A stretch of DNA of 63,628 nucleotides, the filler included, from Stramenopiles sp. TOSAG23-3 (Eukaryota): the NCBI GenBank assembly GCA_900128585.1. It is 14 parts of 14 records of this genome, joined end to end, with 100 filler letters (N's around TTAATTAATTAA, not from the genome) between each part and the next. Parts side by side here need not be neighbours in the genome. Positions count along the whole stretch, not along the records: positions 1 to 19,392 come from LT642402.1; 13 more parts are not named here. One strand, written 5' to 3'. The notes under the pieces were generated by a model. It had not been told where the DNA came from and did no database searches. It saw nothing but the letters and a program-made list of their open reading frames with translations. Both the position numbers and the translations under genes were made by a program. Shown here piece after piece: positions 1 through 55,496 of the stretch. Numbering within the stretch: position 1 is the stretch's first letter; every line of letters begins with the position of its first letter.

Positions 1-147
1 AGAGGTGTGTCAAGTGTTCTAGGGAATCCACTCAGTTGCTTTCTGAACACAGTGTCTATCTCTCTAGCACTCTTTTCTTCATATTCTTTTCTTTCTAATA
101 CATTATTACAATATATTATACATAGTATATATATTGATGATCATTAA

Positions 148-398
148 AAGAAGAGAAGGGGAAGAAGAAGCAAGAAGAAGAAGAGAGAAAATAATATAAT
201 TTAATAATAAACTTCGTGGTACTTATATAAGAAGAAAGAAGAAGAAGAAGAAAGAAGAAGAAGAAGAAGAAGAAGAAGAAAGAAGAAAGAAGAAAGAAGG
301 AGAGAAGAAGAAGAAAGAAGAAGAAAGACAAAGAAAGAAGAAGAAAGAAAAAAGAAAGACAAAGAAAGAAAACGAAAGAAGAAAAGAAGAAGAAAAGA
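148..398. repeat. Imperfect (AAG)n / purine-rich microsatellite
   Basis: Long runs of aagaag interrupted by aaag; it generates the spurious Phe/Ser/Leu ORFs on the minus strand. Confidence 0.9.
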
Positions 399-1003
399 TC
401 ATCATTCATTCATCTCTTTTTTTTTTTAAATATGTTGTAATTAGAGCTATAATACAAGAGGATACCACCAAATAATACGCAAGTGGATGGATACGATGTG
501 ATAGTAGTCTAACAATTACAAATATATAAAATAAATAGGAATAATAACATATATATTACACAGCAATAACCAAGGTTGTGTCAATCTTTTTCGCCTCCGT
601 GTGCAACAGTACATTACGAGGAGTTACTCCTCGTATGCTTTATGTTATAATACAATATAGAAGATCAGAAGAAAAAAAGAAAACAACAAGAAAAAGTGTG
701 ATCAAATCCCCATAAATTCCTTAAATGTTACCAATATTACCAAGTATTAAGGCAAGAAATCCTACACTATTGGTGGGGCGAAAAATGATCTAGCTGAAAA
801 CACAAAGAAGGGGCATGAAAAGAAAGGGGGGAAAAGTTAAATTTGACAATAGACACTACGACTTTCTTTTGAATCAGTGGAATCTGGAATTGTTTCCGGA
901 ATTTTAGGAGCTTTTCTTTCCTTTCGTGGTTTCGCTGTCCTTTTTTTTTTTTGAAATCGGTGTCTTCTTTCCTCGGGCCGGGAGGTGACGACGGGCGAGA
1001 CTC

Positions 1004-2599
1004 ATGGCTTCGTTGGTCAGCGGCGAGCCGTCGCCGGAGAAAATGGTGCATTCATGGTTGCGCTTGAGGGTGCCCCAGCTGACGGCAGAAATGATGGAAT
1101 TTCTTGGAAAGGACAAGGGTTGGAAGACGTTGTTGAAGTATGTCGTCAGACCAGAAACGTCGAGAGAAAAACAAGTCCCCGATGGGTTCGTCGAGGAGTC
1201 TGTGAAATACTCGTACAAGGCGACGATGCTCCTGGCGGGCGACGGGGTGGACCACGGGGACTCTTTCGTTCCTTCGTTTCGAGACGTTGACAAAGACTTT
1301 GTTGAAATGGTTGTAGATGGCTTTAGCAATGGATTTCCGGTATGCATGCCGCACCTTTGCCTAATCATTAGGCGACTGCTGGAAAAGAAAGCGGGTGGCT
1401 TCAATATCGGACTGCTTGACTTGCTTTCAGACGACGACGGCGTGCTGCTGAAGCGGTTGTTTATGAAGGGACTGTTCCCCAATATCCATGTTGGGTGTGT
1501 AAATAATTTAATGGTCGACCTCATGTGCATTCCTCAGCCCGTCGGTTTTGTCAGCCATACGAATGATCCTGGAGATTTTTTGTGTAGACCAAGTAATATC
1601 GTGAAATTGGACCGGTCGTTAGCCAGCATGGACATTCTGTCGTCGTTCCTTCGTCTCTTGGACGACCCGGGCGCCTTCGACCCGTTCCGGGCGTCCGTAG
1701 CCGTGGAGACGCTCAAACAATTTTTAGAGCGCTTGTCAAAGTCCCCCCACCACGATAGCATGGTGCAGTACATCGAACAAAACACCCAAGGGGTAGTCAA
1801 CCAAGTTCTCCGAGTCTTCTTCAGGGCAATGGAAAAGGTTGAAGCTGGCGTCGACGCTCTCCTGGAAAAAGAGCGCGCCACCGTCGCTTTGGAGTTCTTA
1901 AATGGTTTTGCCCGGCACGTGTTTCCCCGGAACGTCGAGGGGTTCAAAAACCAACCGTACCGGTCGTTTACGACTAATGTAGCCCCACTTGTAGACAACA
2001 ACTTGAGGCGCATTTGTGGAAAGCTTTTGGATTCGCTTTTGCCGCACGTGACAGAGCTTTCCAAAGCTGTATTTTCTCGGGCCCAACCCCGTGGGCGGCC
2101 AGTAAAGCACACGGCTTACACCGTTTGCGACCCATTCACCTATTACAGGATGCAACAGTTGACCATTTTGTTAGCAATTTTGACAGAAAGCGTTGCGGTA
2201 GGCTGCAGCGACGATGTCCTGGACTCTTTGCCGACGGGTGGCTTTAGCCAAATGTGCCACTGGTGTTTTTATTACTCCCATAGCAACATGTACCACCACC
2301 TCTACCTGCAGTTCCTTGACGTCATTTTGTCTACTAACTACGAGCGGTTCGCTTTGATGGTGATTCAGCCGCCGGGCCACGTTTTGGAATCTCCCGATGC
2401 GGAGGACTTTGTGACCCTCGGAGTCGACGACTATTTGGAAGGCAAAGCGAACAAAAGTAACGTAGGATTTACCCTTTTAGCACTCGGGTGTGTGTACCAG
2501 CACCGTCAGCAACATCTGGAGGCCCACCCCAAGTGGAACGAACTTGGTGAATCGGGCAGGGAACGAGTCCTGAAATTCAAAGAGCAACCAGGTTCTTGA
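1004..2599 (+). CDS. Divergent SAPS-domain protein (SIT4/PP6 phosphatase regulatory subunit-like), 531 aa
   Basis: Intronless GC-rich ORF. Motifs KYSYKATMLL, KHTAYTVCDPFTYYRMQQL and WCFYYSHSNMYHHLY parallel the recalled SAPS motifs KYPNISCELL, KTTWGVLDPPVGNTRL and FFKYPWNNFLH. Confidence 0.55.
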   Translation: MASLVSGEPSPEKMVHSWLRLRVPQLTAEMMEFLGKDKGWKTLLKYVVRPETSREKQVPDGFVEESVKYSYKATMLLAGDGVDHGDSFVPSFRDVDKDFVEMVVDGFSNGFPVCMPHLCLIIRRLLEKKAGGFNIGLLDLLSDDDGVLLKRLFMKGLFPNIHVGCVNNLMVDLMCIPQPVGFVSHTNDPGDFLCRPSNIVKLDRSLASMDILSSFLRLLDDPGAFDPFRASVAVETLKQFLERLSKSPHHDSMVQYIEQNTQGVVNQVLRVFFRAMEKVEAGVDALLEKERATVALEFLNGFARHVFPRNVEGFKNQPYRSFTTNVAPLVDNNLRRICGKLLDSLLPHVTELSKAVFSRAQPRGRPVKHTAYTVCDPFTYYRMQQLTILLAILTESVAVGCSDDVLDSLPTGGFSQMCHWCFYYSHSNMYHHLYLQFLDVILSTNYERFALMVIQPPGHVLESPDAEDFVTLGVDDYLEGKANKSNVGFTLLALGCVYQHRQQHLEAHPKWNELGESGRERVLKFKEQPGS

Positions 2600-3046
2600 A
2601 CGCAGAGGGGGTTTAGGAAAAACCAAGATTATTATTACGTTTTGGGGGAGAGTTAAAAGAAAAAAAACTAGTTTCTCTCGGTTTATCTCAATCTACCGCG
2701 AAAGCGAATCTGCTCCTTTTGTCAATAATCTATCAATCTTTAAAGTTAATATTAAAGTTTTTATTTAAAATGAGAGTCTTAAAACATATACTCTAATACA
2801 ATTTGTTTTTTAAATAAACTGGTGCCACACACAATCCCAAATGTTTCCATTTTGATTAAAAAAACAAAATATTATTTTTTTTTTTTTAAATTATTATATA
2901 CTACCGGTAGTATGCCCCAAAATATAAAAAAAGAGACAGAAAAGCTAACTCGGTAATTCTTAAAAATGTTTTCTCCACTTAAAATCTTAAAATACTACGA
3001 CACGAGTAAATATTAATTGCACCCCTGGAGTATTTAACTCCAATTT

Positions 3047-3957
3047 TTAGTGGGCAGGTTTCCCTCTCTTCCGCCTGCGACGTTCTTCGTCGCTCAGCAG
3101 ACATTTCGGCTTTTTCATACGCTTCATTACAACGTTGGGAAGGTGCATGGACTCTTGGTACCGTAACGATTTCCATATATTTTTTCTAGTTTCTAATATC
3201 AAAGCTTCGTTCTGTAAAATCTTTGACGATCGCTTAGTTGAGGGGCGAATGTACGCATTGAAAGATCCCCCTAGCGCAGAGTTGTAGTCAAACTTATCAT
3301 TTATCATGTTTCTTCTTAATTGTGGCATTTTCAACGACGGGAAGTACCCCCGCTTTCTGCCGTAAGTTCCAGCTTTCACAGACGACGATCCAAACTCGTA
3401 GTTCTTTGGTCTCCATCGTTTCATCCAATCTTCATGGCTTACCGTCTGACAAATACTTCGCGGCGCAGTTGTAAACGGGACAGCAATCGGACTATGGGAA
3501 TAGTGTCTATATTTGGACGGGGTGCAAGGCTTTGGATACGCTTGAGATTTCCTGTCTGGTACGACTGCGGAACAAATTTATCATCGTTTGGAATTGGCGC
3601 GGAAAAGGATACGGACTTACGATTGGGTGACAAAAAAGGCATGCTGCTATTCAAGTTAGACGTCGATGCCCGCTTGAACTGGTCCAAACTCAGTGGCGCC
3701 CCGCTAGTCATGAGTCCAGGAGATGATTGGGACCCTGCCATTCTTCTACGCTTTGCTCCCATTTCAGGGGTTTTCATGCCGCTGAGAACAATCTTTTTCT
3801 CTGTCCAGGGCAACGGGAACACCTGGTCCGGCACCGCACGGCCAACCACCTCTTTCCCGTCTACAATAAACCGTCGCCGGTCGCGCTTGACCTGTCTCTT
3901 GTTCCGAAACATATATGTTTGAGCCCATTGCGACTCAATAATCTGAATGTCGGCCAT
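3047..3957 (-). CDS. Hypothetical basic protein, 284 aa, two exons (3621..3957, 3047..3564)
   Basis: A 56-nt intron at 3565..3620 (GTAAGT...TTTGTTCCGCAG) joins ORFs 3439..3957 and 3047..3424 in frame (...SPN-L-VPDRKSQAYP...HEDWMKRW...). Confidence 0.7.
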
Positions 3958-4944
3958 GATTCAATAGAACCCGGACCGGTAAGGACGAACAAACGCTTTT
4001 TTCTGTCAGACTATAGATTATACATTATGATAAATGCAAAAAGTGAATTGAATTAGTATAGTAAGTGCGAAAAAAGTATAATAGTCTGTATGCATTATAA
4101 TGAATGAAATATTTATTAGTTCTAAATAAAAAATACCAACAAGCATATATAAATAAAAAAGTGTCAAAAATATATAATTTAAAAAACATGAGGAGAAGAA
4201 GAAGAAGATGTGAGAAGAAAGAATCGGTATGTTTATAATTTAAAATATAATAGTCTACCACCGACCATCTCCTCATTTATTATATTCACAAAAAAAAAAA
4301 GAAAGGAATATATATTTTATTATTATTACAACCAAACACCACCACACCACCAACAACAAAAAAACAAAAAAACAAAATTTTAAAATTATTAAAAAAAAAA
4401 AACGGATGATCAATCAACAAATCAACAACAACAAATAATATCACAATATGACGACACCAAATAGTCGTCCTCCAGCAAAATACGAAAAATAGCAATAAAG
4501 AAAAATAATGAAATAGAGAATCCTGAAGAAAGAAAGGTGTGAAGAGGTGAAAAATACAATTTAAAACATACTCTATACAATTTTGTTTTTTAAAGCTCAA
4601 TCAATCTAATACTCCGGATTGTTTTTTAATGATCGCTTTTGCAACGTAGCTAAGGCGTCTCCCTATATCAAGATCATTCACGTCTTTCTGTCAATGGGGG
4701 ATGGGCCCGTCAACCCCATATTGCGAGCGTGGCGCGATAGATTTCCGGAACGTAGCAGCAAACGACATTTCGTGGTTCCGTGGTTCCTTTTTCCAACATG
4801 GGCGCATTCCCGCACGCCTTTTTCACACCTTGCAACATCAATTAAATTTAAAAAACTTTCAATCACGAAAATTATTTTTATTATGTTTCATAGGTAAAAT
4901 TATGTACGGGGGAGTAAAAAATACTCTGGGTGCGGTCGATTTTA

Positions 4945-6258
4945 CTACTTGTTCCTCAATTCAAACTCCGCTTCGGCGCTCGCCTTGGCGTGCTTCTGCC
5001 ACGTATTGGTAATCAACTTCTTCGCCTTTTCCCTATTAGAAGTTGCTAACACTTCTTTCGTGGCGACGTCATCAAATTTAGGCGCTGGAGGTTTTCGTAC
5101 CCCGCCTGCTTTGTCGGCCGCTATCGTGTCCTTGTTTGCAAGGGTGTTTTTTACTACCATCAAGCGTTCCATAATAGATTCCTCCGTACGGGCAACGTGC
5201 TTGATTTGGTCCAAACGGTCCTTGCGTTGCGTTTCGAACCATGATTTTCGTGTTTGGCACTCGCTCTTCCACGCTTCCAAATCAGCTTTGGTCATGTCTA
5301 CGTCTTCCTTTGTGACGGAGTGGGGCACGCCCACCATGGAGTGGTTCCCCTTCTTGCTGCTTCCGTCAAGTCCGAATTTTTTGCCGTCGGGCGAGAAGCC
5401 TAGCTCCCGCATCTCTTTCGCAATGCTTGTGCTGGTTGCGTTGATCTTCTTCTGGAGGTGTTCCAGGCGTTCCTTGGACGCGTCCCGCGTCGTGTGCGAC
5501 TCCTCGTACGAAACGTACGCGGCTTCTTCGATGGAGTGCTCCCGTGCCTGCTCTCGGTCGAACTGCGACAGTAATTCAGAAAGGGTGCTGTGGACTTTGT
5601 GCGCGTCTGGCGACTCCCACTCTAATGTATCCTTGTCGCCGCCCACTTCGAGCAACGAGGCCCCCTCTTTGGGCTCTTCCTTGGCCTGCGCAAAATGCTT
5701 CTCCATAACGGACACCATGCTTTCTAACACGCGACCGTACTGGTTGTACCGAGACTGATGCTCGACGAACTGGGAGTGGGCGGCGTCGCGGACGTTGGCG
5801 CTCAGGGAGTAGGTCTCCATGTCCGCCGTGTAGCCCTCGTTCAACCGCTTCGCCAGCTGCTGCGTGCTCTTGTACTGGATCCAAAGCCTGTCCCCCTTGC
5901 GCTTCTTCATCATGCGATCAAGTTTGTGCGCCGCGTTGGCGGCCTTGGTGGCCAGGTCTTTGTTGCCTTTGCTTTCGCTGTCGTCGCCGGCACCTAACTT
6001 GGCCTTCAACGTGGCGACCTTGTCTACCAAGGCGCGCTCGCGGCGTTGGCAGTGGGCTTCCGAAGAAGTTTCCCGTGCAGACGCAGACGCGTCGGCGCGC
6101 TCCAAGTTATCTTTAACCACTTTCAAAAGGTCTAGAATGTTGTTGGCGGGCGTCCCCGCCTCCGTTGCTGCACGAACTTGTTCAGAAACGGATACAGCGT
6201 CCAGGGACGCGGCACTAAGCCCTAACGCGCATACCGTAAGAATCCAACTAGACTTCAT
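4945..6258 (-). CDS. Secreted coiled-coil protein resembling trichocyst matrix (TMP/Grl) proteins, 437 aa
   Basis: N-terminal signal peptide MKSSWILTVCALGLSAA, two long helical halves, two mature-region Cys, central SLLEV motif. Confidence 0.55.
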   Translation of the reverse strand: MKSSWILTVCALGLSAASLDAVSVSEQVRAATEAGTPANNILDLLKVVKDNLERADASASARETSSEAHCQRRERALVDKVATLKAKLGAGDDSESKGNKDLATKAANAAHKLDRMMKKRKGDRLWIQYKSTQQLAKRLNEGYTADMETYSLSANVRDAAHSQFVEHQSRYNQYGRVLESMVSVMEKHFAQAKEEPKEGASLLEVGGDKDTLEWESPDAHKVHSTLSELLSQFDREQAREHSIEEAAYVSYEESHTTRDASKERLEHLQKKINATSTSIAKEMRELGFSPDGKKFGLDGSSKKGNHSMVGVPHSVTKEDVDMTKADLEAWKSECQTRKSWFETQRKDRLDQIKHVARTEESIMERLMVVKNTLANKDTIAADKAGGVRKPPAPKFDDVATKEVLATSNREKAKKLITNTWQKHAKASAEAEFELRNK

Positions 6259-7918
6259 CGTTTTACTACAACACTGTTACTATGCACAATAAGTAGAGGG
6301 ATCCAAGAACCAAACAGACGAGGACGCTATTTTCTTTCTTAATATATAATAATAAAAAGAAAAGACAAACAACCAGAACCGTCAGTTGAGTCAACAGAAC
6401 GAGAAACACTTGACGAAGTATGACGTTCCGTTTCGTTTCGTTTCCTTCCTTCCTTTTTCAACTTGTTGGCCTTTCCCCTTTCTTTCTTTCTTTCTTTCTT
6501 TCTTTTCTTTTCTTTCTTGCTTAATATACTCCTTGGATTCCAATGAAATTGTAAAAATAAGAGAGTAATAAAAATTGTATTCAAGCGACCTTTTATATAG
6601 ATAATAATTATAGTTTTATTATTATAAATATATCGCTATGATATATACTTATTATAACATTAGAATACAATTATAAATAGGTAATATATATCATCTGGAT
6701 TGTACTTTCATAGGATAATAATAAGTATAATATATCATAGTATACATCCCCCCCACTTTTTTAGTTAAAAAATGAATTTGATCTCCTACGACGACACCTC
6801 AGAATTCAGAATCTATTTCTACTTTCTATTGGTTTGGTGTACATTAATAATGTAATCTCCATTACGTACTTGTTATGTATTTAGATTACCTGAAACTGAA
6901 ACACCTTTTCTTTTTTTTTATACTTTGAAAATATTATTGATTTTGTATTTTGTATAACACTTTTAAGATCTGTGTTTGTGTTTGTTTGTGTTAGATTTAG
7001 TTAGAGATTTAGACCGACTACTTCCAACACACTTTCTTTGTTCTACTTAAATGAATGATACATGTAGTGTAATCATAGCCTTTAATGATTCTCGTATAAT
7101 GATATAATTCAGTATACTTAATGAGTTATATTTGTATTGTAATTATAGATAATATTTTTAATATTGTATGAATTACATAATTGTTATATATAGGAATAAA
7201 TACAATTTTATATACTTGAATAAATAATAGATTACATGATTTTTTCTTTTTCTGTGCGTTTTTTCCACCGTTAAACTTGTTCGGTTATACTGTCCATAGA
7301 TAACATCTATACAGCATTGTCAAAAATGAAATCTTCCATCCTTTCTTCTTTGATTGAGTTCAAAGCTAAGAGCTTTGCTTTCTTTCTTTCTTTCTTTCCG
7401 TTAATTTAATTAGTGTTGTGTTTATGTTAAAAAATGACAGAAAACATTCTTTCTTTCTACCCCAACACCTCTTATGTAATACATCTAAGGGAAGTAGATT
7501 GTTTTACACTGAATCAATTGAATCATTTAAATTAAAAATAACTATAATTACAATGTGTAAATAATATAATATTTAAATTATATTTAAATACTAATCCTTA
7601 ATAAGAAAAAAGTGTGTTTTTTTTTAATAATTATTTTTTTATTTTTTATTTAGCAGAAGATGTACTGATGATAATAGGTAGTCGTAGGAAGAAGAAGTAA
7701 TATAAAAGTAGTAATCCATTTTCCCAAATTTCCAATTTCTTCAAGACAGTAGACAAGAAAGATAAATTGAATGATTCAACAAAGAAATGTTTTTAATGTT
7801 TCTGACGAATAGATTAATGAGCCAGGAAGTATATTTCTAACTGAGATTAGTTATTTGCGTTTTGAGGGAAGAAGAACACGAACGTATATATATATAACAT
7901 ACTTGCGAATAGGACGCC

Positions 7919-10900
7919 ATGGCTGGAAAAGCGAAGAACCCGATGGAGCCAACGACAGCGGTGACCCACCACTATATGTTCGGTTTGGAGGTCGACGTGT
8001 CGCCCTCCATTTTGTATTTAGACGAAGGAAATGTTGTACACCCAGTAGGTCATAATGTTGCAATTTTTAACGTCGAGAACAGGCGCCAGAAACTAATCCA
8101 TGGGATGCCGTGGGACGGGACCGGGGTCCGAGGTATCACCGCAATGGCCATGCCACCGCGGCGAAACGCCATTGTTATTGCCGAACGCGGCGAGCGCGCG
8201 TTGCTTCACATTTACGACACCCAATTTTTCCGGAAAAAAAAGACCCTCGTGACGTCCGAAGTCCTCAGCAATGAGTATGTGTCCGTGTCGTTCTCGGACA
8301 ACAAGACGATCATTTCACAAGGTGGTGCGCCCGACTGGACGCTCGTGCTCTGGGCGTACGACAAGGGGAAAGTCCTCGCGCTGGCCAAGGTGTCGAACGC
8401 GCAGAACTCGCCGATTTACCACGTCAGTTTTTGCCCAGAAGACCCCAGCATGGTCCTTGTCACCGGTGACACAATCATCAAGTTCTTCAGGGTTCAGGAC
8501 GGTGCATTCAAGCCCGTGAACCCGAACCTTAGCAAACGGGAACCACAGAACTATCTGTCGCACAGCTGGCTCCCAGACGATCAGGCCATTGTCGCGACGG
8601 ACGACGCGCAGCTGCTGCTGTTCGAAAACGCAGAACTTCGAACGCAGTGGACGACGGGGGACGACGGGGGCGTCGTAAACTGCATCGTTGCGTACTCGAA
8701 GGGGTTCATCTGTGGGGGTGAGAACGGAGTCGTGCGAGTGTTTGAAAAGTCGGAAGATGGCAGGGAGCCGTACAAGCGCTCCACCACGTTAGAGATCGAC
8801 GACAACCGGTCCCAGATCAAGAGCATGGCGGTCAGCTTGAACGAGGAGACCCTCGTCATTACGACCCAGGACCGGCAAATATACGTCCTTCAGCTGTCCA
8901 ACTTGGACATTTTGAAAGGGGCGGACACGAACTTTGAACTCCTGGCGACCCCATTGCACGAGCCGAACTTGAGCGGCCGATCGATCATCACCGGGATGGA
9001 CGTTTGCGTGCGCAAGCCGCTCATGGCCACGTGTGCCGCGGACAAGTCCGTGCGAATCTGGAATTACGTCGACAAAACCATGGAGCTGATGCGGGTGTTT
9101 GAGGAGGATCCGTGCAGCGTAGCAATGCACCCGTCTGGTCTGCACATCCTCGTGGGTTTCACGGACAAGCTTCGCCTGATGAACCTTTTGATGGACGACA
9201 TTACCTCGATCAAAGAGTTCAGCATCAAAGCGTGCATCGAGTGCCGGTTCTCGAACGGGGGCGATTTGTTTGCCGCGGCGGCCGGGAACGCGATCAACGT
9301 GTACAATTTTTACACCTTTGCGTGCATTGCCCAGTTGCGGGGCCACAACCAAAAGGTCCTTACCATCAACTTTGACCCGATTGGCCAGGGCCTTCTCAGT
9401 GCAGGCATGGACGGCGGCGTTATATTTTGGGACTTGACGAAGGGCGTCCGAAGCGGCGAGCTTAGCCAGAAGGGGGTCGTGTACACCAGCGCGATTGTCG
9501 GGCCGAACAAGGAAGTCTTGGCGACGGGCACGGACAAACTAGTGAAATCGATCGAGTACGACACGGAGGGCGTGGGCTCTGTGGTGAAAGAATTAGAAAG
9601 CAATACCGCCCTTGGTCAAATATGCCTTTCGAACAGCGGGAAAACCCTGTTCGCTGGGGTCACTGACGGGGGTCGCCCCGGCGCCATGCGGGTGTACACT
9701 TACCCGATTACCGGGCATTTTGTCGAGTACCAGGCGCATGCTGGGCCCATCACCCGCGTTCGCATATCGAAGGACGACAAGTGGCTCTTCACGTGTGGCG
9801 AAGACGGGATGGTTGCCGTGTACAACGTGGCCGAGGCGGTCATCTCCAGCGATAAGAAAAAGTCTGGAGGCAAACAAAAGACAGACCACCTGAACTTTGC
9901 CGAGGAGATCTTGGTGACCAAGAGTGACCTGGAAGAGAAGCAGATTCGCATGAACGAGCTAACGTCCAAAGTGGAAGAGCTTACGCTTCACAACGAGTAC
10001 CAGCTTCGCCTTAAAGACATGAACTACGCGGAAAAAATCAAGGAAGTGACGGAAAAGTTTACCCAAGAGCTTGACGCGGATAAGCGCAAGTACAACCTGC
10101 TAATGGAAGAGAAGGACGACATGAAGCTGGAGTACGAGTACAAGATCAAGACCCTGCAATCTCGGCAAACGCGGGAGACGGAGGAGCTCGAGACGAACTA
10201 CCAGCACAAGGTCAAAGCCGAGGTCGATAGGTATGAAAAGCTGGTTCAAGAGCGCGACGAAATGAACCAGGAGTGGGACGACAAGAACGAAATGTTGATC
10301 GAAGCCCACCAAAAGTACATGGGGGAGCTCACGGAAGATTATGAGCAGAAGCTTCAGGAGGAAAGTGAGAACCAACAGCGCATCGACGAGGAGAAAGGCA
10401 ATATGATCAACTCCTTCGAAGAAAACAAGGGGAACGTGGAGGACGATGCAGATAGTGAAATTGAAGAGCTGAAGCGAAAGTACCAGGGAAAGTTAGCGGC
10501 GGAGAAAAACGCCACACTTCGCCTGAAGGGAGAGAACGGTTTGATGCGAAAAAAATTTAGCGCCCTCCAAAAGGATATCGAAGACCAACGGGATGAGCTC
10601 AAGTCCATGCTGGAGAAGCAGCAGCAGTTGTACGAAAAGATTAAGGGGTTAGAAAAGGACATTCAGGGTCACAAAAAGGAAATTAACGAGCGGGACGAAA
10701 CGATACAGGACAAGGAGAAGCGAATTTATGATTTGAAGAAGAAAAACCAAGAATTGGAGAAGTTCAAATTTGTGCTTGACTATAAGATTAAGGAGCTGAA
10801 GCGTCAAATCGAACCCCGGGAGAACGAAATTGCCGACATGGCCCAGCAAATCAAGGAAATGGACCAAGAGCTGGAGCAGTACCACAAAAGCAATGCGGCG

Positions 10901-11599
10901 CTAGACTTAATGATAGGAGAACTTCGTCTCAAAATGGAAGGCATGCAAGTGGAGCTCGACGAGCAGAAGAAGAAGTTGAAAGAAGCGGAGGACATAATTG
11001 CAGTCTTCTCCACGGACTTGCACGCTTTAAATTTAGACATCGACAACTACAAAAAGCTGAAAGGCGGCATCACAAAAATGTACAAAAAACACGTTCAAGA
11101 CGTAGGGCTAGTCGGCGGGAAAGAAGTTGGCACGGGCAGTGCTGCGGCGCAGCAAGAATTCAATCGCCAGAGGGAGTACTTGGAAAAGAGCGTAGAAAGC
11201 TTAAAGAGAAAGCTTGCGAAAGACATGGAACTTCACCGCGCGGACAACATGAGGCTGATGCGAGAGGGCGTGGTGCTGACGGCTGAAATCAACCAGTTGA
11301 GGAGGGAGCTGAAGGTTGCCAAGGCAATTCGCAGCAATCGCAACCCGGGCGGAAACCCGAACGCGCCGCAGTCCGATGAATCGATGGCTCCTTCGCCGCC
11401 GCCTGGAGGCCCAGCGCGGAATGGCGGGCGCGCTGGCATGATTGGATCGAGGGATTCTCAACGCGAGTTTGACATGCAAACCCAACAGCTTCATCGTTTG
11501 CGGGCTCATATTGCCAGGATAGAGGACAATTTAGGTGGTCCACAAGGAAACAAACCCCCAAAATTTGACCGATCCCAGTACGTTGGTGCAGCAAACTAA
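7919..11599 (+). CDS. CFAP57: Cilia- and flagella-associated protein 57 (WDR65), 1226 aa
   Basis: N-terminal WD40 propellers ([51 protein letters not shown]) followed by a long coiled coil with [28 protein letters not shown]. Confidence 0.95.
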   Translation: [1226 protein letters not shown]

Positions 11600-11946
11600 T
11601 GTTTTTATTTTTTTAAATAATTATTTTGTTATAAATAACAGCCAATTTTCTTGTTGTTTTTAATAATATGATACAAATTTTCAATTAATTTTCTTTTCGT
11701 AGTGTCTTGTGTACCGGTACCTACCTGATAATACCGGTACCTGTACGGGTGGTATATACCTGGTAATATATAAGTAAAAACTTTTGTTGTGTTGTATTTT
11801 TTCGCTTAAGCCGCACGCTTGAATAGAAAACCTTGATGACGGAAAGATTTATGCTTTGTGTACATCATACTAAAAAAAGAAAGATGTTTCCTGTTTTCAG
11901 AGCCCAAGAGAATTTCCGAACGGATCAAAGACTTGAACATAACGCC

Positions 11947-12987
11947 ATGAAAAAGGTCGGTTCTGCCCTAATTGGCGGCGGAAGTCTCTCTGCTGCTTCA
12001 TTCAACGAAAATGAAGGCTGGCTGCTGATAAAGAAACGGAGCTCCAAGACTTTTCGGACGAACGCATGGAAGAAAAGGTATGTTAAGATAGATGAAGAAC
12101 AAAACTGTGTTTTGCTCTATAATTTTCCCAATGACGTGGGAGTACTGTCTCCTAAATACTCATTTCCGTTGACTATGGTAGGAGAAAATGAAGGAATAGT
12201 ATGTAAAGTATTTGTAGATGGAAAGTCGAAGAAACACTGTTTTACGCTCCAAAATAGCCTTGACCCATCGAAAAAAATTACTGCCGCAGCCTATAGCGAA
12301 GAAGAAGTCGGGCAATGGGTGGATGCGATAGAGCTTCTCTTGTCCGATAAACGAAGCAATGGCAACTCTGGAAAATTTCGTAGAAGCAGACCCGGTGGAC
12401 AACGGGAGGAAGCACGGGAAAAAACTGCCACCCACCCAGTTGTATGGCAGGACGTAGCAGTAGAGGAAGACGACCCTTTCCTTGATAAGTTTTTGGGGTC
12501 TGAGAAGAACATGCTCTCTGACCCGGAAACCGACCTTTCCAACCCCGGCGCCGACTCTGTCTGCTCCCTGGACCCTCTTGGGCTCTTGGGGAATGAAGGA
12601 AGCCAAGAAGTAAAGGTACGGAGAGAATTGATGAAGAAGATGTTTTATGCAAAACCATTTGATCCCAAGACGTACCTGGAAACGTTTTACCGCAATGCAA
12701 CGCGAAAGGATTTAGTTTCCGCGTTGAGAAGAATGAAAGACAATCAAGTGAACATTGACCAATCTGTAGCGAACATTGTGAACGAAAATTTTGTATCGGT
12801 TGTCTCTGTGAACGAGCTTGGGGACGAAATTTGTTCTGAAAGGCTCTTTGAAATGCCCGCAGCGAAGAAAAAATTAAGGGCCTACGAGCGTGAAAACTCG
12901 ACATTGGTGGGTGAACTCAATCAATTTGCGGAAGAAATGACGGGGCTGAACGAACTGACCGCCGCCCTTAAAAAAATAACCAGCTGA
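11947..12987 (+). CDS. PH-domain protein with a C-terminal Sec5/Vps51-like N-terminal-type segment; start uncertain (in-frame ATGs also lie upstream, e.g. 11851 and 11884)
   Basis: PH motifs EGWLLIK...WKKRYV...EEVGQWVDAI, then DPLGL...FDPKTYL...DL..AL..MK...IVNENFVSVVS, resembling the Sec5/EXOC2 N-terminal helical region. Confidence 0.6.
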   Translation: MKKVGSALIGGGSLSAASFNENEGWLLIKKRSSKTFRTNAWKKRYVKIDEEQNCVLLYNFPNDVGVLSPKYSFPLTMVGENEGIVCKVFVDGKSKKHCFTLQNSLDPSKKITAAAYSEEEVGQWVDAIELLLSDKRSNGNSGKFRRSRPGGQREEAREKTATHPVVWQDVAVEEDDPFLDKFLGSEKNMLSDPETDLSNPGADSVCSLDPLGLLGNEGSQEVKVRRELMKKMFYAKPFDPKTYLETFYRNATRKDLVSALRRMKDNQVNIDQSVANIVNENFVSVVSVNELGDEICSERLFEMPAAKKKLRAYERENSTLVGELNQFAEEMTGLNELTAALKKITS

Positions 12988-13207
12988 TGTGAGTATTCCT
13001 TGCCGTATTTGTTTAAAAAGGTAAAAGACCGCAAGGTGGAAAACATGGACCTTCGAGGGTGCTGACGCTTCATGGTAACTATGCAATGATTTTAAGAGAC
13101 TATTTTTGACACATTCAATACTCAAGAGATATACTCTTAATTAAATTACGAAGCACAACACACGAGCGGCGCGCACACTTTCACCCTCTTCTCCCCGGTA
13201 TTCACCT

Positions 13208-13945
13208 TCAAATACCATCCTCGTCTTCAAAAAACTCCACGTCTGGTATTTCCCAATCTTTCTTATTATCGCAACACCCACGCATTTGAAGGGTTTTCCC
13301 GCTCGAAATTAGAATAAAAAATACGTAAAGGGTGTAACGAACCAGCAGCAAAGAGAACGAAAAAAGAGTGTCCCCTTCGGGACCACTGTTTACGCCAGGT
13401 ATGTCTGGCTCCAAAGCATAAACCAAGAGTGCGCACACGCACAAGACCATGACTGTAAACTGAAACCAATTTCCAACGCACTTCAGGTACTGCAGCGTGT
13501 TGCTGGCATTTTTGTGTCCTTGGCGGGATTCAGAGGCTGCTCTATCGACAAAAAAATAAGCCCTCCAGCCATCATAATTAATCTCCAAGATGACGTCCCC
13601 GACGACTGCAAAAGTGACGAATGTTTCTATCAAAAAAAATAAACGACTCCTTGGGTTGTGCCCTTTGTCTTGCACAACCCACGCCACTAGAAACGTAGTG
13701 AGCAACAGGACAAAAATATTAAATATAAAGTACCAGCGAGAATGCCGCACCTTGATGGCAAAGTTGTACTTTCGCAGCTCTGCATTCCTTGGGTGGTTGT
13801 GCCCCAAATGGGGATCCAAATGATGGCGCCCATCGCCATCTCGGGGGCCTCCATAGTGCCCAACAGATTTTTGCCCTGCCGCCGTGAACGGGGTCCTCTC
13901 GTCGACATACTCGTCCTCCCCTAATACCTCTCGTTTCCAATCCAT
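13208..13945 (-). CDS. Four-TM membrane protein, stand-alone voltage-sensor-like (Ion_trans S1-S4) domain, 245 aa
   Basis: S1 (SRWYFIFNIFVLLL), S2 (FLIETFVTFAVVGDVILEI...GWRAYF), S3 (GNWFQFTVMVLC), S4-like (LLLVRYTLY); no pore segment. Confidence 0.55.
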   Translation of the reverse strand: MDWKREVLGEDEYVDERTPFTAAGQKSVGHYGGPRDGDGRHHLDPHLGHNHPRNAELRKYNFAIKVRHSRWYFIFNIFVLLLTTFLVAWVVQDKGHNPRSRLFFLIETFVTFAVVGDVILEINYDGWRAYFFVDRAASESRQGHKNASNTLQYLKCVGNWFQFTVMVLCVCALLVYALEPDIPGVNSGPEGDTLFSFSLLLVRYTLYVFFILISSGKTLQMRGCCDNKKDWEIPDVEFFEDEDGI

Positions 13946-14138
13946 GTTTAGTTCCTACAAACGCTCATCCACGCTGAAACAATTACGTAATAAAGAAATA
14001 AAACACCTTCTATTTATATTCTAATAATATACAATGATATCAATCGTTTCTTTGATAACATTTTTTTCTCCATAGGAAGTGGATTTGATCCTCATTCTGC
14101 CGTTTGCTCAATCCTGGTGAAGGGACAGTCATCTAACG

Positions 14139-14171
<33 letters not shown>

Positions 14172-14352
14172 ATTATTATTATTTATTATTAGCGAGCTAT
14201 TAATATTAGCTTCTTATTTTTTTTTATAATATGATGTGATGTTGTTGGATGATAATAATATGAAGAAGAAAGAAGGAAAAGTAAATTCGGTAGGGTTCCC
14301 CCGTACAGGTACATACGGTTAACTGCTATTACCCGTAGTACAGGTGACACGT

Positions 14353-14482
14353 AGAAGAAGAAGAAGAAGAAGAAGAAAGACGAAGAAAGAAGAAAGAAGA
14401 AGAAGAAGAAGAAGAAGAAGAAAGAAGAAGAAGAAAAAGAAGAAGAAGAAGAAGAAAGAAGAAGAAGAAGAAGAAGAAGAAG

Positions 14483-14512
<30 letters not shown>
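14353..14512. repeat. (AAG)n microsatellite, ~160 bp
   Basis: Near-perfect aag triplet run in the spacer between two divergent genes. Confidence 0.95.
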
Positions 14513-14513
<1 letters not shown>

Positions 14514-14907
14514 TGAGCAGTTATTTTTTTGCTGCTTGCTGTATCGATATTACATTAATATTATTATTATCGGCATCAGTTTTTTCAATCAGCCTCCCAA
14601 CACCCCAACCGTATTGCACTACACAACAACGAAGACAGTTGTTTTTAAATATAAAATAAAAAGAGAAGACCATCTCGTCAAGTAGTAAAAAATGAGCAAA
14701 CGAACCTTGGATTTCAATTGACATTTGTCTAAAGTAGGTTAACGTACCTGCTCAATGCTGCAAATTGCACTCCCATTTTTTTAAATTAAACAGTGCGTTG
14801 CTTACACAAACAAAACCGAGATAATACATCTATAAGTTGCGATAGCTCTAGAAGCCAAGCAGTTTCTTGATCAACCTTACGAACGACGCAGGTTTACCTA
14901 TTTCAAA

Positions 14908-15558
14908 ATGGCTGACGCGGATGAGGCTGACGGGGGCTACCACTTTTCTTTCAAAGTTGTCATATGTGGCGACAGTGGCGTTGGAAAATCTACTTTATTG
15001 GACGGAGAAGGGACATCCGCGTACGCGCGAGCAAGCGGTGATAATACAAGCGGGATAAACTTTCGCGTTAAATTTTATGAAGTGGAAGGGAAAACGTACC
15101 GTGTTCAATTTTGGGATTGCCCCGGTGCAGAAAGGTATTTGAACCTGACGGGGCGCTTTTGTGCAGGCTCCGCGGGGGCAATTTTAGTTTTTGACGTCAA
15201 CAATCGGGATACATTTGAAAATATAGAACGTTGGGCGCAAGAAGTGGACAAATTTGGAACCATGATAAAAGTCCTCGTAGCGAACAAGGTCGATCAGATG
15301 GACGGCACGAAGCGAGAAGTCGCAAAAGAGGAAATTGAAGAAGTAGGAGCTCGACTTGGAATGGACCATTTCGAAACCGCCGCGTTAAGCAGTCGAAACG
15401 TAAACGAAGTCTTTCAAAATGTTTTCACCCAAATAGTCGAAAACTTGCCAAAACCTCCCGAGCCCTCCCTTTTGCTGCGCAAGGGGGTGAAGTTAGGAGG
15501 GAAAATGCTGTCCGACCCGGAATTTAGGCAATCCCTGTTCAAGCGAGAGAACTCGTGA
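14908..15558 (+). CDS. Rab-like small GTPase lacking C-terminal prenylation cysteines, 216 aa
   Basis: G1 GDSGVGKST, G2 TSGINF, G3 WDCPGAE, G4 NKVD, G5 ETAAL. Confidence 0.85.
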   Translation: MADADEADGGYHFSFKVVICGDSGVGKSTLLDGEGTSAYARASGDNTSGINFRVKFYEVEGKTYRVQFWDCPGAERYLNLTGRFCAGSAGAILVFDVNNRDTFENIERWAQEVDKFGTMIKVLVANKVDQMDGTKREVAKEEIEEVGARLGMDHFETAALSSRNVNEVFQNVFTQIVENLPKPPEPSLLLRKGVKLGGKMLSDPEFRQSLFKRENS

Positions 15559-15708
15559 AAAGGCTTGCGCGGACCCGAGAAGAATTCTGGCGTGGGGGAG
15601 GGGTGTATATAAAACACACACTAGCGAAAAGATAATAAATACTTACTTCGTAAATGTGTTAAAATATGAATGATTTGTACTCAGCTCGTATCATACGAAG
15701 TTTTTTAT

Positions 15709-18700
15709 TTAACAATTCGTCATCGATATTTTCGGCACAATATTCATCGACTGCAGTTCCTGGAACAGCAGCTTCGCGGCGTACGGCAACTTCAACGTGG
15801 TCAGTTCATAGTCGACGCCAACGTTCTCGCAGTAATTGCACTTTCCCGGGTACGCCAGCAGACCGCAGGTCTGCGCGTTCAGATTTAAAAAAAACGTGTG
15901 TTAATAATAAGCCCTTCCAGAAAACAAAATAAAACACGAAGAGAAAGAATCAAATTACTTACTTGACAAACAGTTGCGTTGTAAAGGTCGCTCGATATCA
16001 TCAAACGTTCCATAAGAAGAGACGAGGCCCCGTACCCGATCAAACAATCCCTTTCCATTTCCCCCAGTCGCAGACCACCCTCCCGAGCACGACCTTCTGT
16101 GGGCTGACGAGTCAGCACTGCCCTTGGTCCCCGGGGCCGGGCGTGCATTTTGTCCAACACCATGTGCTTTAACTTTTGGTAGTACACGGGCCCCATGAAA
16201 ATGTACGCTTTCAACGGTTCCCCTGTCAGCCCAGAGTACAGCATGTCTTTCCCAGCGTAGTTGTAACCATAGTCGATCAGCGTCTTGCTGCAGTCGTCGA
16301 TTGTTACCGCGCCACCGTAATCTTCTCCGAACGCCGTGCCGTACATTCTTTCCCCGGAAAGAACGCTGGCCTTGGAGGCTACCAGTTCGATCATTTTCGC
16401 AACCGTCATACGCGATGGAAAACCGTGGGGGTTCATTATCATGTCGGGGCACAGACCGCTGTCTGAAAATGGCAAATCTTCTTGGGGAACAATTATTCCA
16501 CAGACGCCTTTCTGGCCGTGCCGACTACTGAACTTATCCCCTAGCTCTGGAATTCTCATCTGCCGCACCAATATCTTTATTATCGTGGTTTCGGTGTCTG
16601 GGTTCTGGGTTAGCAGCACTTTGTCCACGACGCCGCTTACGCCAACCGGCGCCTTATACTTCAAATTGGCTGGTTGATACTCAATATCAGAGCTTGCGCC
16701 TCCGCCAGCCGGGATGCCACCGTCGATGGTGTTCTTCGGGGTATCCTTTCGGATCAAAAATTGGTCGGGTTTTACTTTCATCCCTGCGCCGCAGATCCCA
16801 TCGTACTCCATGGCCCCAAACTTGTCGAATCCTGTGCTAGACTCACTGTTGGGCCAGCCCTCGCCCTCTGCCATCTCCCGAATCCGATCTCGGGTATGGT
16901 TTGCATAACGCCGAATCGTCGTTGCGAACTTTTTCATGACCATGCAGCGGCCGTAGCCACGATCAATACTGGCTTTATTCAAAACCAACGCATCCTCAAT
17001 GTCGTAACCCGAGTAACTCATGACGGCGATAATGGCATTCTGGCCCGCCGGCAATTTGTCAAAATTGACCAAATCCAGCACCCTGGTCGTTACCAAAGGC
17101 TTCATAGGGTACACCATGAGGTACAGAAGGGTGTCCAGCCTATTGTACTGGTTGTACCCGATCGTCCCGATCGCTTGCTTTCCCATAGCACACTGGTAGG
17201 TATTGCGAGGGCTTTGGTTGTGGTGTGGAAACGGGATCAAGCCCGCGACCGTCCCAAGGATTGTCATGGGGTCGATTTCCATGTGCGTGTGTTCCTTCGT
17301 AACGTATCGTTCGTCCAAAGCAATGTAGCAATTGTTCTCTTCGTTCACATCTATAAATTCGACCACGCCTTCTTCGACCAAATTCCAAAATTCCGCGGGG
17401 TCTGCAGGATCCTTAATCTCCTGTATGTGCTTCATCTGCAATTTTGGCTTGCCGTTTTCCACAATGATCAGAGGTCTGCACACGCGCCCAGCGTCTGAAG
17501 AAATGTACACGCACCGGTGCAGCGAGTGTGAGTGAATGCTAATGTATCGCCCAAAATGCCGTGCTCGCCGCAGCATTTTTAGGTCCTTTTCGAATTTCGC
17601 AGGGTTGCGGTGAGCCCCCAAAATTCTACCGTTCAAAAATACCATGTAGTTTTCTTCGGCGTACAGCTCCTCGCCGGAAAGTTCGCAGGCGTCAACGACT
17701 CCCAAGGCGTACGCAACGTCCGCGACCTGGTCCTCTTCCTCGTCCGCCGTGACGTGAGTCAAGAGGGCCAAATTTTTCACAAGACCACAGGATTCCCCTT
17801 CTGGTGTATCGCTTGGACACAGCATTCCCCACTGCGACGACTGAAGGGACCGGGGGCCACTGACCTTTCTGGTCTTTTCAAACTGACTCGTTATCCGCGA
17901 CATATGCCCCAGGCACGATATGTAGGACAGGCGCGAGAGCTGCTGGGTAACGCCTTGGCGGTCCATGCGGAAGCGCTTCAGGCTCCAGTTCCCCGTCGAT
18001 ATCATCTGGACGAACCCGTTAGATATCGTGTCCTGCCTAATTAGCTTGCTCGCGTCGAACTCTGCTGCCCGGTTCACCTTGGTGAGAATGGCGTCTGCTT
18101 GCCGCTGTATTTCAGAGTTGAACCGTTTGAAAAGGTCTTCGAAAAGCAGGGAAACCAACTGGCCGGCCAGCTCCAACCGTTTGTTTCCGTAGTAATCTTT
18201 GTCGTCTAAACGCTTCTTGTCTAGTTTTGCGGACAAAGCCATTCGCGTCATGTACGCGACGTACACGGCTTTTTGACTAAAGTTGTACGAGGGGGAAGGA
18301 ATGTGCGGGAGCACAACGCTGGCAAGAACTTCCCGGGATTCGTCCTCCGGCGCCCTGTCCCGGCCCCACCCGCGGCGCCGTGTGCTCCGGGCTTTCATGC
18401 TCTTGATCCGCTGGCCTATGAAGTGGTTTGCTTGCGAAGAAGAGTATATGTCTAATTCGTGAGCCTCTTGGAACGATGGGGTCAGTAGTGAGGCTATCTT
18501 GGAGTCGGAACCTGCAATCAAGGAAACTATTTCGGCATCGCTCTCGACACCCAAGGCCTTCAGCAAAATGATGATGGAGACTTCTTCGCCCAACGTGTTC
18601 TGCTTCATGTACAGCTTCCCATTCTTCAAAATCACAGAACACCGACTTTTACGCTCGTGCGTCGAGCTCATCACCGTCGAGCTAATAAACCCCTTGCCGT

Positions 18701-19280
18701 CAACTTCTACAATGACCCGATTTTTTGAGAGCTGCTCGTGAATTAGCACTACTTTTTCCTGCCCCTTTACGATGAAATAGCCTCCCGGGTCCAAAGGACA
18801 CTCACGAAGCTGGGCCAGCTCTTTTTCGGATTTTCCTCGCAAGATGCACCTGCAGCTCTTCAGCATTATGGGGATCCGGCCAATGCACACCCCAGTTTTC
18901 GGCGTCATGGTTTGCCCCTTCCTGTACCTAATGTCAACGTAGACCGGGGCGCTGTACGTCATGTCCTGCAATCGACACTGGTTCGGTTGCGTGGCCTTTA
19001 CCTGTTCGTACCCCATTTCCGCGTTCGGCAGGCCAACGCGTATAGCGTCGTACGCAATTACGGTCTTCCCGTCAGCCGTGCTCTTCACCTCTGCGTTCGC
19101 AGCGATAATTTTGTTCATCTCTACCCGAATAAAATTGTCAAAAGAGTCTATGTGCTGCCTTACCAGCCCCCTCACGCGGAGGTAGGACGGCACCAGGCGC
19201 CATTTGTCCGTCAAGCGCTTCACCGACGCCCCAGGGTGGCGCGCCGTGCTAGTGCTGCTGTTCTTCCCGGAAAACGGCAT
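15709..19280 (-). CDS. POLR3B: RNA polymerase III second-largest subunit (RPC2), two exons (15963..19280, 15709..15870)
   Basis: KWRLVPSYLRVRGLVRQHIDSF, DDKDYYGNKRLELAGQL, GDKFSSRHGQKG, GGLRLGEMERDCLIGYGAS. Removing the 92-nt intron 15871..15962 restores the zinc-binding tail VCQTCGLL...CNYC...LPYAAKLLFQELQSMNIVP. Confidence 0.95.
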
Positions 19281-19392
19281 CTCCGTTTCTCACACGCGGG
19301 CGAGTATGTGGTTACAACTTACTTCCACGGGTCCGAGGATTTCCGTGTCGTCGCTGCGTTTTGAATTTACACTTGGCTTTCAATTTGGTCAT

Positions 19393-45161: not shown

Positions 45162-47130
45162 GTACACCCAGTCCCACGCTGCTACCTTGCGGAGTGCACG
45201 AAATGTACTTGTGGGCGAAATGGAAGAGATGCAGCGTTCGGCGGATGCACGCATTAAATTGCTGGAGGACAAAGTTGCAGATCTGAAGCCGATAGAAATC
45301 CCCGAAGACAAAGAGGAAAAGAACGAATCGAACGGCAAGGTTGGGAGGTACACACTTGCAGCGCGCCAACGCAACAGAGAAATCAATTATTCCGCAGCTT
45401 CGCGACAGCTCCAGGATTTGTACACCAAGATGATGGACGGCAAGAACGACCCTGGCAAGAAAAAAGGAAAGCGCAGTCGCCTAAAAGCTCGCACAAAAAT
45501 AACAGGCGAAGGCACTGGAAATGCTCCCAACATGGACGTGATAATGAAAAACCGTAATCCCGCAGAGCGTGCTTCAATGTTAGAGCAAGTTTATAGAAGT
45601 TTCAACACGGCCGAGAAAGTGGACGTGGTGGCCTCCATGATGAGTGAAATGAACGAGGGGGAGAGGAAGCACCTGAATGCAGATTACATCACGGACCTTC
45701 CCGAAGACGAGAAAGTCGAAATACTGCGTGCGATGACGAAGGGGGTCGACGTGGATGAGCGTAGTATGATGATCGAAAATTTGTTGGAAGGGTTGACTGG
45801 CGATGAAAGAAGTGCGATGATCGTCGAAGAGCTCGATACGCTCCCAGACAAACAATTGCTGAAGCTCGTCACTACGTTGCTCTCGGAAAGTCTGAAGGAG
45901 AACGATCGGAAAGATATCATCAATGGCGTGCTCGAAGAGCTCAGCCAACGGGAAAAGGAGGAAACTGTGGTCGAATTGGTTGCTATGGTTGGGGACGCAA
46001 AATTGCGAAAGAAGTTGTTCCTCGCCTGCATTTCTGGGTTTCCCGAGAACGAACGGTCGCAGATTACCAACCAATTCGGGAAGCGAGAAACTAAGGAAAT
46101 TGGAGTGAACACGGAGGCCTTGTCGAAGAAAAGTCCCAAAGGCAAAAAGAAGAAGAAGGGCAGCGGGACAGCGAAGCAGATCCAGGAGCTGCCATCGTCC
46201 GTTCGGAATATGAACTGGGCAAAGTACTTGGTGGTGCGCCCATCGCATGTGAAGCATCGGGCAATTTCTGTCAACCGGGCGGAAAAGCTGATCGGGCACA
46301 TTTACAAGAAAAAGATTCTAGGGGACAAGATCGACGACCGCGAAGGCGCAAACCGGGTGTCGATGTGCGAGAACGTCTACCATTACTTTAGCCAAAAGTA
46401 TGGTATGAAGAAAATGGCAGAAGAATTCATTTACGGCATGGTAGACATCGCCCACAAATCGCGAGATAGGCACAAACGAGTGCACACGTTTGGGGTGCTG
46501 ATAGGCAAAATTGAGACGGAGTCATATTCTCCCGTAATTACTGATGCTGTCATGGCATGGTTGCAGCATGTGTACCCCCCCGAAAAGATCGGGTCCGCCA
46601 TGGATGATGGAGACGGAAAGACCTGGGCCCTCTTGTCGGCGTGTCAAAGTGCGTTCCGTAAGGTGTTTGTCCCAGTGGGGGGAGAAATACGCGAAGACGA
46701 GAAGAAGGACCTGGGAAAAAATAAATTTTACTTGCCAGCGCAGTCGTTCACAAACGCGGACAAACAGTTTCGGGAGTGGGCGAAGCCCGCTAAGGACATC
46801 GACGTGAAGGCAACGAAGAAAATGGGGTCGAAAGAAGTTATTGACGTGGACGAGGCCATGCATTACCTTATGGACGTGTACTTGCAGTACAATGACAGGA
46901 GCAGGCAGGAGCTGGTAGAGGCGGTCACCGCGTTTGATACAGATGGGGACGGGCAGATCAATTATCACGAATTCACGACCTTTATTAACGCTTGCTATAG
47001 CCCATACGTTCCCATCACGGACAGGCTCATCTCCAAATTGTGGATGGAAATGCAGGAGATTTTGGATCATATGGACACGGAAATGTTCTCCCCGCAGCTT
47101 GCGGCAGAGGTGTTTGCATCTGCGTCCATG
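45162..47130 (+). CDS. Large coiled-coil/helical-repeat protein with a TSNAXIP1-like region and an EF-hand, partial at both ends
   Basis: ORF open across the contig; IYKKKILGD...VYHYFSQKYGMKKMAEE...RVHTFG; EF-hand FDTDGDGQINYHEF. Confidence 0.6.
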
Positions 47131-47230
47131 NNNNNNNNNNNNNNNNNNNNNNNNNNNNNNNNNNNNNNNNNNNNTTAATTAATTAANNNNNNNNNNNNNN
47201 NNNNNNNNNNNNNNNNNNNNNNNNNNNNNN
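47131..47230. other. Artificial contig-joining spacer
   Basis: N44-TTAATTAATTAA-N44. Confidence 0.98.
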
Positions 47231-55396: not shown

Positions 55397-55496
55397 NNNN
55401 NNNNNNNNNNNNNNNNNNNNNNNNNNNNNNNNNNNNNNNNTTAATTAATTAANNNNNNNNNNNNNNNNNNNNNNNNNNNNNNNNNNNNNNNNNNNN
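55397..55496. other. Artificial contig-joining spacer
   Basis: N44-TTAATTAATTAA-N44. Confidence 0.98.

Follow-up and report, generated by a model that had tools for sequence, protein, structure and literature searches.

Do flagellates outside the alveolates make secreted proteins of the trichocyst matrix (TMP/Grl) kind, and what might they build with them? The question is raised by one minus-strand gene in a 63,628-nucleotide stretch of DNA from Stramenopiles sp. TOSAG23-3 (here called the window, meaning the whole stretch that was analysed), which a first-pass annotation had read as a TMP-like precursor in an apparently non-ciliate flagellate. The assembly comprises 28.4 Mb in 7088 contigs; positions 1-19392 of the window are a single contig (C6669) and the remainder comes from other contigs, with ORFs that end in X runs (e.g., 45220-47178 and 47179-48960) being cut by the contig joins. 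Our answer is that the gene probably encodes a transcribed, TMP-related secreted rod protein, P0001, in a MAST-4-type stramenopile—a protein with atypical charge and copy number. The gene and its surroundings are laid out as follows:

4945..6258, minus strand: TMP/Grl-like secreted precursor P0001, an intron-free ORF of 437 aa (ORF, RNA contigs, relatives)
4929..6384, minus strand (taken from the ORF): span under one RNA contig
6196..6258, minus strand: signal-peptide-like segment, residues 1-21, with a putative cleavage site (hydropathy; similar starts in relatives)
7919..11599, plus strand: CFAP57-like flagellar WD40 protein, the neighbour (domain and chain matches)

The ORF is a conserved, transcribed gene. 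It opens with ATG, closes with TAG and reads through 437 residues in the standard code, and all of the motifs quoted in the first-pass annotation are present: GTPANNILDLLKVVKDNL...EAHC (containing Cys70), SLLEV (201-205), KVHSTLSELLSQF...EEAAYVSYE, and EC...WFETQRKDRLDQIKHVARTEESIMERL (containing Cys334). RNA mapping used four runs out of 24 listed; in all four, each from a different study, the whole ORF lies under a single RNA contig of 1456-1506 nt (bounded at 4929-6384 in two runs, ending at 6390 in one, and spanning 4914-6419 in one). These runs contain mRNA of this organism, because a 92-base intron at 15870-15963, towards the 3' end of RPC2 (the gene for the second-largest subunit of RNA polymerase III), is spliced in two of the four and the bin 3020-3649 has zero depth in every run; the listed ORF ending at 15885 runs into this same intron. 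In each of the four runs the RNA contig of the TMP-like gene is the deepest on the stretch (35.7-132.6, versus at most 14.7 per bin outside its own bins), which we do not take as evidence of high expression since contig depth, by the mapping tool's own statement, cannot rank genes.

A signal peptide had been proposed, and the hydropathy profile is consistent with one and with the absence of a membrane anchor: the 9-residue average is about 2.0 over residues 5-17, and the 19-residue average downstream of the N-terminus never rises above 0.54. The hydrophobic start and non-hydrophobic remainder fit a soluble secreted protein, of which 416 residues remain past the predicted signal—a size within the 40-45 kDa range for a secreted precursor, slightly long owing to the tail. 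Charge is less typical. Acidity (a pI of about 5) and Ca2+ binding would be expected of a TMP/Grl protein, and P0001 has a pI of 8.4 and a net charge of +3, its halves carrying +7 and -4; we therefore class it as TMP-like, a variant and not a typical member. The eight close relatives have pI values of 6.6-8.6, and the seven distant relatives are acidic (pI 4.5-5.2), in part because of their tails. Two further secreted-looking proteins were seen in this genome: one at 55449-56585 (minus strand) with Thr-rich, mucin-like QPTTTTT repeats, and a small one on contig C6037 (L010:3163-3717, minus strand) that has Cys-rich C..GCC segments as well as repeats of GDGGYVKIDFTHKWD and resembles a peptide precursor.

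A word search gave 10 relatives with identities of 51-99%, and a profile built from eight of them recovered the same 10. With HMMER, 1.84 billion representatives yielded 19 hits with E no higher than 0.001: two known before, 10 short fragments, and seven distant, long proteins (about 20% identity, E between 6e-30 and 5e-12). As far as the 19 can be named, no ciliate or dinoflagellate protein is among them, nor did the other sequence searches return one. Such an absence is expected, since the TMPs of a single ciliate species share only 23% identity; Paramecium has about 100 such genes (accessible text of bioRxiv 10.1101/607622). The alignment joins the eight full-length close relatives to the seven distant ones in 15 rows, with fragments and near-duplicates excluded; in the tree one tight clade includes the MAST-4-type proteins, six others group together in a second clade, and P0016, for which the word search found no relative, sits on a long branch. 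The two clades align at 99.7% probability across 345 columns.

Modelling of this alignment with AlphaFold (mean pLDDT 69, pTM 0.30) gave four long helices joined by poorly predicted linkers, with pLDDT below 50 at residues 195-209, and a separate job on a member of the distant clade (P0020) gave the same four helices. The proposed all-helical layout of two halves about a flexible linker is thus borne out in both models, with the following parts:

5989..6150, minus strand: helix 1, residues 37-90, with the motif P-x3-[IVL]-x2-L-L and Cys70 exactly 33 residues past the Pro (model, alignment)
6049..6051, minus strand: Cys70, invariant (15/15 aligned rows)
5680..5964, minus strand: helix 2, residues 99-193 (model, alignment)
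5611..5679, minus strand: low-confidence central linker, residues 194-216, which holds SLLEV, net charge -6 (model, charge)
5404..5610, minus strand: helix 3, residues 217-285 (model)
5110..5310, minus strand: helix 4, residues 317-383, with W330-x3-C334-x13-R348-x3-I352 (model, alignment)
5257..5259, minus strand: Cys334, candidate disulfide partner of Cys70 (14/15 rows; register presumed)
4948..5109, minus strand: basic C-terminal tail, residues 384-437, pI 9.9, with two short helices (model, charge)

The opening motif with its spacing to Cys70 is kept in 14 of the 15 rows (the sole miss, P0023, lacks the N-terminus), the pattern that ends helix 2 (R157...F164...Y171...M185-E-K-H188) in all 15, and the W330...I352 pattern in 14, the exception being P0019, which ends early; these patterns were derived from the same alignment, and hence the counts show conservation, not significance. 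Other elements are more local. A basic KKRKGD (118-123) in helix 2 belongs to the close clade, and SLLEV is kept only in the eight close relatives and P0016, being absent from the other six aligned proteins. The central linker in which SLLEV lies is a candidate processing region.

How the four helices pack is suggested by comparison with solved structures. The VIA alignments include one of residues 34..373 to an SMC coiled coil (121 aligned, rmsd 3.4), with further ranges of 98..301 (187 aligned) and 154..248 to 159..249. Against solved antiparallel hairpins, most rows for P0001 have end positions that sum to about 402-408, some such as 49..383 lying outside, and for P0020 the rows that span both ends give sums of 393-408. 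These ranges suggest one antiparallel hairpin in which helices 1 and 4 pair, as do helices 2 and 3, with the cysteines roughly facing each other; the Cys70 and Cys334 positions sum to 404 in P0001 and the corresponding pair to 397 in P0020, values that lie among the alignment end sums and make a disulfide across the hairpin plausible. A homodimer prediction for residues 34-378 scored 0.00 and speaks neither for nor against pairing of two chains.

In the distant subgroup (P0020, residues ~415-526; also P0015, P0018, and P0023; loci L006-L008) the position of the tail is taken by a confidently modelled helix-plus-sheet domain. The P0020 domain resembles tarocystatin 3ima_D (Z 9.2, rmsd 1.8, 74/85 aligned), a phytocystatin (Z 8.7), and latexin (Z 8.5), and the models point to a fusion of a cystatin fold with a TMP-like rod. 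At one of these loci, head-to-head with the distant TMP-like gene, two consecutive minus-strand ORFs (L008:2961-4919 and 838-2760) encode a UDP-glucose:glycoprotein glucosyltransferase that is probably split by an intron; this neighbour of the distant subgroup gene had no match in the TOSAG23-3 genome.

The link to trichocyst matrix proteins comes from a language-model search and from residue spacing. In the ESM Atlas, 29 of 30 hits to P0001 fall in clusters that carry PF27870, the T1-F trichocyst matrix family, mostly from Ciliophora, the top hit scoring 0.94 with 211/256 features shared (205-211 in the three rows shown); 170 shared features are reached by nine in ten true family members and by one to two in ten chance hits. 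The MAST-4-named relative described below (residues 22-380) gave 28 of 30 such hits, with a top score of 0.93, and is not independent, being 60% identical to P0001. Recognition stood at 2184, under the tool's mark of 2300, in a search that gives no alignment or E-value and in which one third of shuffled proteins likewise get ten hits of one family. The one remaining hit to P0001 is an unnamed 53-member cluster at 0.87 whose commonest label is Foraminifera (five labelled), which may represent TMP-like proteins in Rhizaria or prey and contaminant transcripts.

TMPs have a Cys in each half, a terminal R..E...I motif, and sequence likeness between the halves. In the P0001 family the first half begins with 33 residues from Pro to the first Cys and ends with an Arg followed by an aromatic at +7 and a His at +31, and the second half ends with a Cys, an aromatic at +7, and an Arg at +14; these spacings presumably agree with the TMP layout of ciliates and dinoflagellates. 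A repeat between the halves went undetected by hhalign in this shallow alignment (probability 0.1-0.5%). With the same shallow alignment, the half-to-half offset of 181 that would be expected comes second among 324 when residues 37-75 are compared (z 3.1), and for residues 150-190 no offset near the expected value is among the top six. The TMP-like assignment is supported by the Atlas hits, by the Cys pair and terminal motif conserved within the P0001 family, and by the four-helix model; the protein is not acidic, and four queries found no paralogue. We consider it quite likely that P0001 is homologous to TMP/Grl proteins.

In whose genome does the gene sit? Its CFAP57-like neighbour (1016 bits versus a Chlamydomonas chain, at most 498 versus entry 8tid, which we take to be from Tetrahymena) ties it to a flagellated host, and the two genes have similar composition (GC 0.56 and GC3 0.70, versus 0.53 and 0.70 for CFAP57). 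In EukProt, g5784.t1 and g5785.t1 are near-identical to the query and to CFAP57 (99.8% each), consecutive, and both on 41,820-base contigs, so the adjacency is probably no chimera of this assembly—although the second genome may be identical or very closely related to this one. TAA, TAG, and TGA each terminate genes in this genome, which is unlike Paramecium and Tetrahymena. A member of the P0005 cluster in EukProt, 'Stramenopile-MAST_4_protein_2508', shares 60% identity with the query across 432 columns, and from this name the host is probably a stramenopile. A search of the assembly for SSU rRNA found none, so that the label MAST-4 hangs on one protein name; a search for the TPI-GAPDH fusion found a stand-alone TIM only, an uninformative result with one candidate scored. 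We hold a stramenopile host to be very probable and, from sequence, a MAST-4 host probable, and the non-alveolate host that had been supposed is upheld by the named relative, the standard code, and the adjacency to CFAP57 in a second assembly. Other genes in the window include an ORF at 11827-12987 (plus strand) encoding a PH domain and then an N-terminal stretch of exocyst Sec5 (positions 2-126 of the 837-position profile, E 3.6e-8), an ORF whose early stop may reflect a split, spliced, or truncated gene, and an AT-rich, 593-aa helicase-like ORF at 47179-48960 (minus strand), unlike its neighbours in wording and possibly a mobile or viral insert.

The reading that we favour, with about even confidence, is that P0001 is a divergent TMP/Grl homologue native to a MAST-4-type stramenopile and that it makes up most of the structural cargo of a small granule with regulated secretion—an extrusome of the mucocyst or trichocyst type. 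The predicted signal peptide would take it into the ER, and the predicted fold is a long antiparallel coiled-coil hairpin, roughly 20 nm long with about 140 residues on each side, with a Cys70-Cys334 staple that would join the halves. The later steps are modelled on the ciliate granule system (accessible text of PMC9159632 and PMC4978903): proteases may trim a short pro-segment, the central linker, and the tail to leave a disulfide-linked two-chain rod, and the rods may pack as a dense core in a small cortical granule and extend on exocytosis. Trichocyst decondensation has been described (bioRxiv 2024.08.22.609204, in part). Extension of the core here might deter grazers or serve in handling prey or in attachment. 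Because P0001 is non-acidic and seemingly single-copy, such a core would be simpler than a ciliate one and might be triggered by something other than bulk Ca2+ binding.

Less probable, yet the nearest competitor, is a true TMP/Grl homologue that makes no ejectable core and is instead a constitutively secreted or surface rod or filament—a cell coat, an adhesive thread, or a luminal scaffold—perhaps nearer the ancestral role of the family. The neutral-to-basic charge suits this account, as does copy number: a paralogue family was expected, and four queries found one locus in the fragmented assembly, where they reach 23-28% identity and score only 4-11 candidates, paralogues being perhaps about 23% identical. 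(The only extra match, at E 0.35, is an unrelated ORF and was ruled out as a paralogue.) A search of the incomplete assembly for the beta/gamma-crystallin domain (PF00030) gave no match, weak evidence that a crystallin-domain co-cargo is missing, and the docking complex of ciliates is reported to be restricted to alveolates, the mucocyst cargo, Grls included, being lineage-restricted (accessible text of PMC9159632). Against it, the members characterised in the accessible parts of the cited literature are all granule-core cargo, and the modelled protein appears to keep the precursor layout, with disordered linkers where processing would fall.

It is improbable that P0001 is an unrelated secreted coiled coil, its likeness to TMPs a convergence of signal peptide and long amphipathic helices caught by a language model. 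The sub-threshold Atlas recognition and the undetected internal repeat would fit this, and a Pfam set that does not include PF27870 gave no family for P0001 and no more than sporadic weak coiled-coil matches across 15 members. Foldseek against PDB and BFVD and the wide VIA search returned generic rods only (SMC, chemoreceptor, and similar; best Z 10.7) and no TMP entry, and thus do not test the fold; a PDB sequence search gave just two chance matches (E 0.2). However, the Atlas hits point to one family, not to mixed coiled-coil families, with 205-211 shared features, and a Cys pair with fixed spacings kept across about 20% identity is not a generic trait. That the gene is alveolate, whether as a ciliate or dinoflagellate contaminant, a chimera, or a sign of an alveolate host, is highly improbable and largely refuted: the environmental assembly is fragmented and yielded no SSU rRNA to fix the host, but the gene shares the GC and GC3 of CFAP57, its near-identical counterpart is again next to CFAP57 in EukProt, its 60% relative is named MAST-4, all three stops end genes, and alveolin (PF12314) had no match in the incomplete assembly, itself weak evidence.

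A bolder proposal, which we regard as tentative and rather unlikely, dates the TMP/Grl lattice extrusome to before the split of stramenopiles and alveolates (perhaps reaching across SAR). In it, MAST-4 grazers of 2-3 micron would make a pared-down extrusome that is non-acidic and encoded by one gene, and the rod plus cystatin fold of the sister subgroup would be a projectile with a protease-inhibitor-like payload. Extrusomes have been proposed in the ancestral chromist (PMC5756292, in part), and a stramenopile homologue would give a molecular handle on whether extrusomes across SAR have a single origin; either vertical inheritance or acquisition from alveolate prey could account for it. It would also imply that a very abundant marine grazer has an organelle yet to be seen: MAST-4 is uncultured, abundant, and largely unobserved, and the accessible text of the same three reports describes no MAST-4 extrusome (PMC6492006, PMC13768787, PMC11412368). 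If really single-copy, the gene would offer a one-protein system for lattice assembly and springing, which is hard to study in the Paramecium family of about 100 genes. The hint is of a secretion system that is older than ciliates and their relatives and reaches beyond them, although no dart has been seen in this cell.

Among known systems, TMP distribution has been treated within ciliates only (accessible text of PMC13096750), and in a reciprocal-BLAST survey the extrusome proteins of dinoflagellates showed no homology to those of other protists (accessible text of PMC5375639). In the literature found, stramenopile TMP/Grl homologues are unreported, most subscription journals lying outside its scope, and supplements or InterPro taxonomy could list members. 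The TMP candidates of Oxyrrhis marina (Rhiel et al. 2018, as cited in the accessible text of PMC8285334) take the family beyond ciliates already, were found only by sensitive search, and are likened here by description; Oxyrrhis differs from this host in being an alveolate with visible trichocysts. Tetrahymena has a second granule cargo family, of crystallin-domain proteins, which the weak PF00030 search did not match in this genome. Grl1p is acidic, calcium-binding, and needed for lattice expansion (accessible text of PMC2133959); P0001 is not acidic, but like Grl1p and Grl3p it is predicted to be a secreted coiled-coil precursor and would be bulk cargo of a lattice core. Ciliate TMPs are coiled-coil proteins of 370-377 aa with a signal peptide and a pI of 4.9-5.0, cut to 15-20 kDa (accessible text of bioRxiv 10.1101/607622). 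Compared with the TMPs of Paramecium and scuticociliates, P0001 is longer (437 aa, with a basic 54-residue tail), has a pI of 8.4 against about 5, and stands as one gene found against about 100, in a stramenopile host and with no sequence-level match; what it shares with Paramecium T1/T2/T4 (PF27870) and scuticociliate TMPT2A/TMPT4B is a predicted signal peptide and a predicted all-helical coiled-coil core of about 350 residues, with Atlas scores of 0.93-0.94.
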